The position numbers were made by a program. A stretch of DNA of 64,000 bases from NCBI RefSeq assembly GCF_057098645.1, contig NZ_CM169472.1; one strand, written 5' to 3'. Shown piece by piece: positions 58,801 to 61,800 of this stretch; the first letter of the stretch is position 1; each line of letters starts with the position of its first letter.

Positions 58801-61800
58801 ACGGCGGTGCGGAGTCCGGAGAGTAACGGAATAGCAGAGAGCTTCGTGAAAACGATAAAGCGTGACTACATCAGTATCATGCCCAAACCAGACGGGTTAA
58901 CGGCAGCAAAGAACCTTGCAGAGGCGTTCGAGCATTATAACGAATGGCATCCGCATAGTGCGCTGGGTTATCGCTCGCCACGGGAATATCTGCGGCAGCG
59001 GGCTTGTAATGGGTTAAGTGATAACAGATGTCTGGAAATATAGGGGCAAATCCACATGGCAGGTGAGCAATCATGTCTGATGCTGATGTGAACACCTGCC
59101 CAAATGAGCCATCCTGACCCACTACCGCCTGCCATACCCCACCATAAAGCGAATCATCAAGCCACAAGCCGGGGCAAGAAACATAAATATCCCCGTCACC
59201 AGTTCATTACCGCCTGTTAACCACATGGTGAAGTAATAAATGAGTGCAGCGAGGATCACCATGCCGAAGAAAGAAGAGACCGCCGATACCACGTTCAGTA
59301 CCTGACCGATGTAGCCGCTTACGCAGACAATACACAGGGCGAGAAACATCCATAAATAAATCATAGCTCAACCTCCTGCCGCGCTAAAAAACCTGTAACT
59401 TCAGTCACTTTAATAGTAAGACAATCCTTAACCTCTGGCAATTTTTGCTAAGCATCAATGAAAACAGCATGTTAAATGCAAGACTGTTGTGTACGGAAAA
59501 ATATTTACTTTGCACGATTAATAATCAGTAGCTGAAAGCAGTCAGCGAGTGATAAAGTACAGATACCGCATTCATGCTCCTCGTGGTTATGTCCTGACTA
59601 GTCTTTACACTCTTTACAGGAACCATTGTCGTACATGATGGCCTAATCAATTGAGTGTACCGCTGTCGACATGGAATCTTCTGCGATACAACAATTCGTA
59701 TCTACAGAAGGTAACTATGTTTCCACAATGCAAATTTTCCCGCGAGTTTCTGCATCCTCGCTACTGGCTCACATGGTTTGGGCTTGGTGTACTCTGGCTT
59801 TGGGTACAGCTTCCTTATCCTGTTCTCTGCTTTCTCGGCACGCGTATCGGCGCAATGGCGCGACCATTCCTGAAACGGCGTGAATCTATCGCCCGTAAAA
59901 ATCTGGAACTTTGCTTCCCGCAGCATTCTGCGGAAGAACGCGAGAAGATGATTGCCGAAAACTTTTGTTCACTCGGCATGGCGCTGGTAGAAACCGGCAT
60001 GGCGTGGTTCTGGCCCGACAGTCGCGTACGTAAATGGTTTGATGTTGAAGGGCTGGATAACCTTAAACGCGCACAAATGCAAAATCGCGGCGTAATGGTT
60101 GTCGGCGTCCATTTTATGTCGCTGGAACTGGGCGGCCGCGTGATGGGACTTTGTCAGCCAATGATGGCTACCTATCGTCCACATAATAATCAGCTGATGG
60201 AATGGGTGCAGACCCGTGGTCGCATGCGCTCTAACAAAGCGATGATCGGCAGAAATAATCTGCGCGGCATTGTCAGTGCACTGAAGAAAGGTGAAGCGGT
60301 ATGGTTTGCTCCCGATCAGGATTATGGTCGTAAAGGCAGCTCCTTCGCGCCGTTCTTTGCGGTAGAAAATGTCGCCACAACCAATGGCACCTATGTTCTC
60401 TCCCGTCTCTCTGGCGCAGCCATGTTGACCGTAACGATGGTAAGAAAAGCGGATTACAGCGGATATCGTTTGTTCATCACCCCAGAGATGGAAGGCTACC
60501 CGACAGATGAAAATCAAGCCGCTGCCTATATGAACAAGATTATCGAGAAAGAGATCATGCGCGCACCGGAGCAGTACCTCTGGATCCACCGTCGCTTTAA
60601 AACGCGCCCGGTGGGAGAATCGTCGTTATACATTTAACAAACTGCTCTGACTCTTTACCTCCTCACATAAGCCATAATAACCTCATGGTTTTTATGGCTT
60701 TTTTCTTAAGGTTTTTTCCTTCGCTGAACATCTAATTATTACCGTCAGAAATTAAACTGTCGCCGATATGAGACACCTGTAAGTTACTAAAAGTAAATAA
60801 GAAAATGCCTCTTGTCTCGTTTCAGTTTTAGGCGTACATTAGCGCCGTCTCGAGCAGTTTAGCTCAGAATTCTGGGGTGATGCCCACGGTAAAATACAGG
60901 ACTTTTAAGGTCGTTTTGCCCGGTGTCAACTCACTGTATCAGGTGTAATGAAGTCATTCAGGCGTAACAGCAATTACGCGGAGAGATGTAAAGTGAAATA
61001 TTTCTTTATGGGCATTTCTTTTATGGTCATCGTTTGGGCCGGTACTTTTGCCCTGATGATCTAAAAGCAAACTGTGCAATGAAAAACAGGAGCCATCAGG
61101 CTCCTGTTTGCATTTCTGAGGTCGGTGTTTATTCCGCGTTTTCGTGAATGTGTTTGCTGCTGGCGGGTAGTAAACCGTCGGCACGGAACATCGCTTTAAT
61201 CCCACGAATCGCCTGACGAATACGGTCGCGGTTTTCAATCAGTGCAAAGCGCACATGCGTATCACCATAGTCGCCAAAGCCAATCCCCGGAGAGACACAG
61301 ACCTTCGCTTCGTTAAGCAATTTCTTGGCAAATTCCAGCGAGCCCATGGCAGCATACGGTTCCGGTATTTTCGCCCAGACATACATCGAAGCCTTCGGCA
61401 TTTCGACCATCCAGCCCGCTTCATGCAGCCCTTTAACCAATACATCACGGCGGCGTTTGTACTGTTCGGCAATGTCGCGCACACACTGTTGATCGCCCTC
61501 GAGTGCCGCAATCGCCGCCACCTGCAACGGCGTAAAGGTGCCGTAATCGTGATAGCTTTTAATACGTGCCAGGGCGCTGACCAGCGTTTTGTTGCCAACC
61601 ATAAAGCCGATACGCCAGCCCGCCATGTTGTAGCTTTTCGACAGCGTAAAGAACTCGACCGCCACATCGCGTGCACCTGGCACCTGCATGATTGACGGCG
61701 CTTTCCAACCATCGTAGACGATGTCCGCATAGGCCAGGTCGTGGACCACCAGCACATCGTAGCGTTTCGCCAGCGCCACAACCTTTTCGAAGAACTCCAG

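Follow-up and report, generated by a model that had tools for sequence, protein, structure and literature searches.

ypdK, a catalogued small-protein gene convergent with alaC in Escherichia coli, and the conserved leader of its mRNA

The window analysed here is a 64,000-nucleotide stretch of contig NZ_CM169472.1 in RefSeq assembly GCF_057098645.1, and near its 3' end it holds a very short open reading frame between lpxP on the plus strand and alaC on the minus strand. The frame lies at 60993-61064 (+); it starts with GTG, continues for 22 more codons and ends in TAA (61062-61064). It reads GTG AAA TAT TTC ... ATG ATC TAA, with the raw translation VKYFFMGISFMVIVWAGTFALMI*; with formyl-methionine at the GTG the product reads MKYFF..., and the whole peptide of 23 residues is (M)KYFFMGISFMVIVWAGTFALMI. 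What gene is this, and is it already known? The region is 100% identical to its counterpart in genomes of E. coli O145:H28, where RefSeq annotates ypdK at the same coordinates, between the same two neighbours, as 'membrane protein YpdK' (WP_010723117.1). The counterpart in K-12 MG1655 is b4680 (YP_002791250.1 / WP_010723117.1). Nucleotide and protein sequences of the two are identical over the entire frame, the GTG start, the length and the position between lpxP and alaC are the same, and the Shine-Dalgarno (SD) site, the leader length and the terminator are identical as well. The YpdK equivalog model of NCBIfam, NF033437, aligns residues 1-23 with profile positions 1-23 of 23 at 57.5 bits (E = 9.4e-16), where the curated cut-off is 30 bits, and in a large protein collection the exact peptide is named YpdK on at least 1000 contigs. 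The feature is the already catalogued E. coli gene ypdK; it is real and it is not new. The original prediction had given it this name from the sequence, and the RefSeq annotation and the family score bear the name out. It had also held that such a gene is easily missed by ORF callers, which is fair in general, but current NCBI annotation does include ypdK. Likewise, the gene was said to be absent from the ORF track. This is so for the 23-codon form, but at a minimum of 20 amino acids the track does show the region, as a 38-residue frame with an ATG start at 60948-61064 (+).

YpdK had no match in Pfam, PDB, PADLOC or PHROGs, and the PDB search returned no homologue with a solved structure. No second copy of ypdK was found in the window or in the 80 species loci described below. 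A copy of IS2 lies about 2 kb upstream of ypdK in the strain of the window; it is absent from the O145:H28 strain RM12581.

How widely is ypdK distributed? Of 5426 complete E. coli genomes, 5422 contain the SD site together with the frame, as one copy per genome (median, one place), and in 4769 the identity over this stretch reaches 99% or more. From true plasmids it is essentially absent: 14 of 72,556 plasmid records match, several of these being multi-megabase records of chromosome size and the rest ranging from 70 kb to 1.4 Mb. To sample orthologues, AlaC was used as an anchor, which gave 80 loci from different Enterobacterales species. A YpdK-like frame lies just beyond the alaC stop codon, on the opposite strand, in 75 of them, and in 72 of these 75 it is convergent with alaC and has its terminator in common with that gene. 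The orthologues belong to Enterobacteriaceae (Escherichia, Citrobacter, Salmonella, Enterobacter, Kluyvera, Kosakonia, Buttiauxella, Cedecea) and Erwiniaceae (Pantoea, Erwinia, Mixta), and extend to Serratia. Among the five loci lacking ypdK, one is a truncated contig; in the others, from Erwinia endophytica, a Symbiopectobacterium, Lonsdalea and a record labelled Pseudomonas, an HMM search of all six frames did not find the gene. Every one of the 75 orthologues has 23-24 codons and starts with GTG, and the stop codon varies between TAA, TAG and TGA at a constant position.

Is it the frame that has been kept, or the RNA in which it lies? Selection statistics were computed on the 69 distinct ypdK nucleotide sequences. 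The entropy at the first, second and third codon positions is 0.58, 0.19 and 1.13, respectively. Residues Y3, M6, G7, S9, G17, T18 and F19 are invariant, with most of their third positions free to vary. Pooled pS is 0.61 and pooled pN is 0.17, which corresponds to a pN/pS of about 0.26-0.28 and a Jukes-Cantor-corrected dN/dS of about 0.15, and none of the 69 sequences has a premature in-frame stop. The other two sense frames have pN/pS values of 1.2 and 2.2. In the antisense frames the values range from 0.46 to 2.2 and stops occur in many sequences, with the exception of the mirrored antisense frame, where pN/pS is 0.46 and stops occur in 5 sequences. The pattern of entropy and pN/pS indicates a translated gene under purifying selection, since conservation at the RNA level would not give such a signature. 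ypdK is thus a free-standing protein-coding gene under purifying selection, and the signal is far above chance. One might still suppose that the frame is incidental and that the conserved element is a non-coding RNA, or the 3' region of alaC with its terminator. The RNA around ypdK is clearly structured and conserved, in the leader helices and in the shared terminator, and 72 of the 75 loci keep tight linkage to the 3' end of alaC. However, variation has a three-base periodicity, synonymous sites are saturated where the amino acids are invariant, and the stop changes its identity but not its position, all of which goes beyond what RNA constraint alone would produce. No Rfam family scores above threshold either, and translation has been reported by two independent methods, as far as the accounts cited below describe them. 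This supposition is effectively refuted, and we leave it hardly any probability at all. Taking gene and mechanism together, the best explanation is that the feature is the known protein-coding gene ypdK, to which we assign a probability of about 0.93.

Where does translation of ypdK begin? An SD site, GGAGAG, lies at 60980-60985 (+), 7 nt upstream of the GTG, with a gap of 9 nt between GGAG and GTG. Among the 75 orthologous loci, essentially every one has GGAG 8-10 nt 5' of its GTG. In most genera outside Escherichia, an in-frame stop stands one or two codons before the GTG. A longer product has to be considered here, namely a 38-residue protein starting from the in-frame ATG at 60948 (MKSFRRNSNYAERCKV-KYFF...). 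It is what a mechanical ORF call reports (60948-61064), and neither of the two Escherichia sequences examined has a stop within the extension. But it is absent outside Escherichia: most genera have the stop just mentioned, and the upstream frames of the remaining ones are unrelated. The spacing of GGAG suits the GTG at 60993 and not the ATG at 60948, and RefSeq, b4680 of K-12 and the NCBIfam model all have 23 residues. We therefore rejected the 38-residue form, whose N-terminal extension is confined to Escherichia, and consider it very improbable as the real product. The GTG at 60993 is the real start, because the ATG extension is open only in Escherichia and stops stand just before the GTG elsewhere. 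Both the GTG start and the ribosome binding site of the original prediction are accordingly retained. Across the 75 species ATG never substitutes for the GTG, despite saturated synonymous change. Why should a GUG be invariant? The simplest guess is that initiation has to be weak.

The next question is from where ypdK is transcribed. The upstream gene lpxP ends at 60637 and has its own terminator, a hairpin followed by a T-run, at 60670-60705. It is also not a constant neighbour, being upstream of ypdK only in Escherichia, Salmonella and some Citrobacter and Enterobacter. The upstream neighbours vary by genus and include lpxP, a dipeptidase-like gene, MFS transporters, a beta-lactamase-like gene and others. 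While the upstream gene changes between genera, a promoter block, the leader and the pairing with alaC stay with ypdK. The block that accompanies the gene is cTCTTGTCT, 17 nt, TACATT and then AGCGCC. In the window it provides a -35-like hexamer, TTGTCT, at 60812-60817 (+) and, 17 nt further on, a -10-like hexamer, TACATT, at 60835-60840 (+), the latter within the nearly invariant GCGTACATTAGCGCC. The cTCTTGT block is conserved in an alignment of 18 genera and in promoter contexts, and 55 of 76 loci, Serratia among them, have the string GTA[CT]ATTA at a distance of 73-195 nt before the ypdK GTG. In Erwiniaceae, GTAAATTAGCG is found at the position equivalent to the -10 block. The promoter was not called by the scan tool because only 8 of 12 positions match the consensus. 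An AT-rich block at 60777-60800 may resemble an OmpR site in reverse orientation. From the conserved -10, transcription is predicted to start near 60847. On a K-12 tiling array, a plus-strand transcript begins 148 nt upstream of the ypdK GTG (PMC3009722, suppl. S3); this start maps to about 60845 in the window, the leaders of K-12 and of the window being equal in length. ypdK thus appears to be transcribed from a conserved promoter of its own, of the sigma70 type, some 145 nt upstream.

A transcript from this promoter would pass through a structured leader. The predicted 5' leader of ypdK is about 145 nt long and occupies 60847-60992 (+), its start being that predicted from the -10. Three elements can be recognized in it. 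The first is a 5'-proximal hairpin at 60848-60868 (+), of which a counterpart is predicted in almost every one of 68 leaders, though not with the same sequence. Helix P1 pairs 60873-60884 with 60922-60933 (+) and encloses a variable hairpin, which is deleted in one E. coli lineage. Hairpin P2 pairs 60962-60967 with 60974-60979 (+) and ends directly before GGAG. P1 and P2 were recovered by RNAalifold both in 15 and in 37 Enterobacteriaceae sequences. In the alignment of 37 sequences, 95.1% of the P1/P2 cells are paired, compared with 30-50% in slid controls. Double-sided changes occur in 8 of the 15 pairs, and none of 500 shuffles attains the observed pairing or covariation. The minimum free energy (MFE) fold of the E. 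coli leader includes the 5' hairpin, P1 and P2, with a z-score of -2.1. Two further helices were considered and rejected. One is P3 (TTCAT/ATGAA) around the SD site, which is just 71% paired and has essentially no covariation; the other is a hairpin between the SD site and the frame in the E. coli MFE fold, which is lost in Erwiniaceae, whose paired codons differ. No Rfam family matches the leader above threshold; three matches were obtained with E = 0.05-0.56, far under their gathering scores. Conservation of the leader reaches from Escherichia to Enterobacter and Kosakonia, and Erwiniaceae have a counterpart.

At the other end of the transcription unit, a bidirectional intrinsic terminator hairpin of ypdK (+) and alaC (-) lies at 61084-61109. 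It begins 19 nt after the ypdK stop and is a perfect 11-bp stem with a 4-nt loop, AAACAGGAGCC-AUCA-GGCUCCUGUUU, with a run of A's before it and U-rich sequence after it. The fold has -22.5 kcal/mol on the plus strand (z-score -3.4) and -22.7 kcal/mol on the minus strand (z-score -3.6); no shuffle out of 200 is as stable. The stop codon of alaC (-) is at 61129-61131, which makes the hairpin a bidirectional one common to the two convergent genes. A simple consensus scan did not call it, since the stem takes up the flanking U's. Of 76 distinct loci, 73 have a hairpin with at least 7 uninterrupted pairs no more than 110 nt past the stop of ypdK. The stems differ between loci yet stay complementary, for example GGAGCC/GGCUCC, GGCGCC/GGCGCC, GGGCGAC/GUCGCCC and GGUCAGG/CCUGACC. 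The downstream terminator that had been predicted is therefore present.

Is the protein made? Published work, as represented in the sources cited here, reports that it is. The 18 new small proteins described by Hemm et al. in 2008 include YpdK (PMC3009722), and EcoGene 3.0 states that translation of these small proteins was experimentally verified (PMC3531124); the detection of YpdK as a tagged protein is attributed to the same 2008 work. Supplementary Table 1 of a PIRT-Seq comparison places ypdK in its 'Ribo-ret only' column, that is, detected by the retapamulin ribosome profiling of Meydan et al. 2019 and, according to that table, not by proteomics or transposon fusions (PMC12350097). Ribosome profiling and tagging, which the original prediction had proposed as checks, are thus already on record in these accounts (PMC3531124, PMC12350097).

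What kind of protein is YpdK? It is hydrophobic from residue 3 to the end, as had been predicted, with a mean Kyte-Doolittle value of 1.99 over residues 3-23, and its sole charge is Lys2. In some lineages it has one extra C-terminal residue, E, K or A. Two conserved end motifs, K-Y-x-x-M-G-x-S and W-x-G-T-F-x-L-M, flank a variable hydrophobic middle. The peptide is predicted to form one hydrophobic helix, just membrane-spanning in length. Going by this hydrophobicity, YpdK would insert into the inner membrane as a single transmembrane helix, with Lys2 and the N-terminus probably on the cytoplasmic side. It would then probably pack against a larger inner-membrane protein, such as a transporter, a sensor or an enzyme, and tune its activity or stability. 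When the conserved residues were tested for one helix face that could point to a packing interface, the result was not significant: the helical moment of conservation is 0.046, compared with 0.033 +/- 0.016 in shuffled sequences, 20% of which reach 0.046.

Known small proteins offer a model for such a role. AcrZ acting with AcrB, MgrB with PhoQ, MgtS with MgtA, KdpF with KdpABC and CydX with CydAB share with YpdK the size class below 50 amino acids and the single hydrophobic helix (PMC12648545). These small inner-membrane regulators or subunits and YpdK are also alike in lineage-wide conservation, in a few invariant small or polar residues and in the approaches by which they were detected. In contrast, YpdK with its 23 residues is shorter than AcrZ, MgrB, MgtS, KdpF and CydX, its conserved residues do not lie on one face, and it lacks the arrangement of kdpF and cydX, which share an operon with the genes of their membrane complex. 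The likeness to proteins of the AcrZ and MgrB type may suggest how YpdK works, and it does not make YpdK a member of that group. No conserved partner gene stands beside ypdK among the loci; the sole constant neighbour is alaC, which encodes a cytoplasmic aminotransferase. In Erwiniaceae only, a pair of MFS and HlyD-family genes lies directly upstream of ypdK on the same strand. This position directly 3' of an efflux pair hints at an AcrZ-like role as a pump accessory, a lead and not evidence. An accessory or regulatory helix on a larger inner-membrane protein would be the likeliest role of YpdK.

Could YpdK instead be a peptide of the type I toxin kind, which would damage or depolarise the inner membrane and be kept silent by the structured leader and the weak GUG? 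In tisB, shoB and zorO, translation is typically restrained by a long leader. The leader of ypdK is likewise long, structured and conserved by covariation, its weak GUG start is invariant, and the peptide is very small and purely hydrophobic. The toxins IbsC, ShoB, TisB and DinQ resemble YpdK in just these features: the peptides are very short and hydrophobic, the leaders long and structured, and the translation starts weak (PMC9860968). In K-12, moreover, the ypdK transcript rises 2-fold (log2 1.06) after UV (PMC3009722, suppl. S3). However, no LexA box that could account for UV induction was found, a search of 60000-61100 for CTGT-N8-ACAG with at most one mismatch being negative, and PADLOC and PHROGs give no match. 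Type I loci are patchy and often multicopy, whereas ypdK is a single-copy core gene with fixed synteny over three families and under strong, residue-specific purifying selection. The invariance of G7, S9, G17 and T18, together with the dN/dS of about 0.15, suggests specific contacts over generic membrane damage. An antisense RNA was looked for as well: a consensus scan, which could miss a weak promoter, found no antisense promoter facing the ypdK mRNA, the sole minus-strand promoter-like site, at 60763-60735, being directed away from it, and no sRNA in Rfam matched. We therefore regard a toxin-like function as improbable, and as less likely than a helix bound to a partner.

With the partner-bound helix as the preferred reading of the protein, what might be new at this locus? 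ypdK entered the K-12 gene list in 2008-2009 and is named automatically by the NCBI pipeline, and its recognition carries little weight as a finding. The leader and the gene's own promoter are a side observation that may be new. It is conceivable, though on our estimate doubtful, that the ypdK mRNA contains an undescribed element, either a cis-regulatory leader that gates YpdK synthesis or a dual-function RNA of about 260 nt, and the pump-accessory lead deserves the same reserve. The potentially new material is limited to the conserved structured leader and the invariant GUG of the mRNA.

Many E. coli small proteins that have been verified lack a known function, and YpdK is among them. Our literature search, in which the primary small-protein papers were represented by later accounts of them, found no paper that assigns it one. 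What the comparison does establish is that ypdK belongs to the vertically inherited core genes of at least three Enterobacterales families. Its end motifs, its GUG start, its promoter and its leader define concrete mutants and fusions with which the partner of YpdK, or the regulation of its synthesis, could be found.

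The GTG start codon of ypdK is found in 75 of 75 orthologues among the alaC-anchored loci (L002-L081), and the first 8 nt of the gene, GTGAAATA (window 60993-61000), are invariant among them, in contrast to the rest of the ORF, where synonymous sites are saturated. Ahead of this start lies an out-of-frame ATG (window 60986-60991), only 2 nt past the GGAG core of the Shine-Dalgarno sequence, and in E. coli it is directly followed by TAA, so that a start-stop pair precedes ypdK. This ATG, in the form GATGA, is kept throughout the Enterobacteriaceae and is absent in the Erwiniaceae.

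The leader itself is predicted to be about 145 nt long (window 60847-60992) and to form a 5'-proximal hairpin and two helices, P1 (60873-60884 pairing with 60922-60933) and P2 (60962-60967 with 60974-60979), both with covariation support. In an alignment of 37 sequences, pairing in the helices is found in 95% of the cells, and 8 of the 15 base pairs show double changes. No Rfam family matched the leader. Is its length fixed within E. coli? In L002, the locus of the GTDB representative E. coli (4369-4487, minus strand), about 33 nt corresponding to window 60885-60921 are missing, thus the leader length is polymorphic within the species. The missing part is the inner hairpin enclosed by P1, and P1 itself is retained.

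In the region 60758-60840, further upstream, a block resembling a promoter is conserved: TTGTCT and TACATT with a 17-nt spacer, then AGCGCC, with an AT-rich stretch on its 5' side. Also upstream of the block is the inverted repeat TGTCGC-N6-GAGACA (60758-60775). In another E. coli its arms are a perfect TGTCGC/GCGACA, and in Pseudocitrobacter they read TGTCGT/ACGACA; a regulator may bind to the repeat, or it may form a hairpin. Between lpxP and the ypdK promoter stands the intrinsic terminator of lpxP (60670-60705), with AGCCATAA and, further on, TTATGGCT followed by TTTTTC. On a larger scale, compared with O145:H28 strain RM12581, the window carries a 1329-bp insertion between ypdI and yfdY (57724-59052), whose 301-aa ORF (58138-59043) scores 727.6 bits against the model of the IS2 transposase TnpB.

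Gene neighbourhoods differ among genera. In Pantoea, Erwinia and Mixta, genes for an MFS transporter and an HlyD-family adaptor lie 100-200 nt upstream of ypdK on the same strand (L058 4554-7190, minus strand; also L069, L075 and the other Erwiniaceae loci), and in Cedecea and Buttiauxella an upstream MFS gene lies on the opposite strand. These MFS and HlyD-family neighbours hint at a possible pump-accessory role for YpdK.
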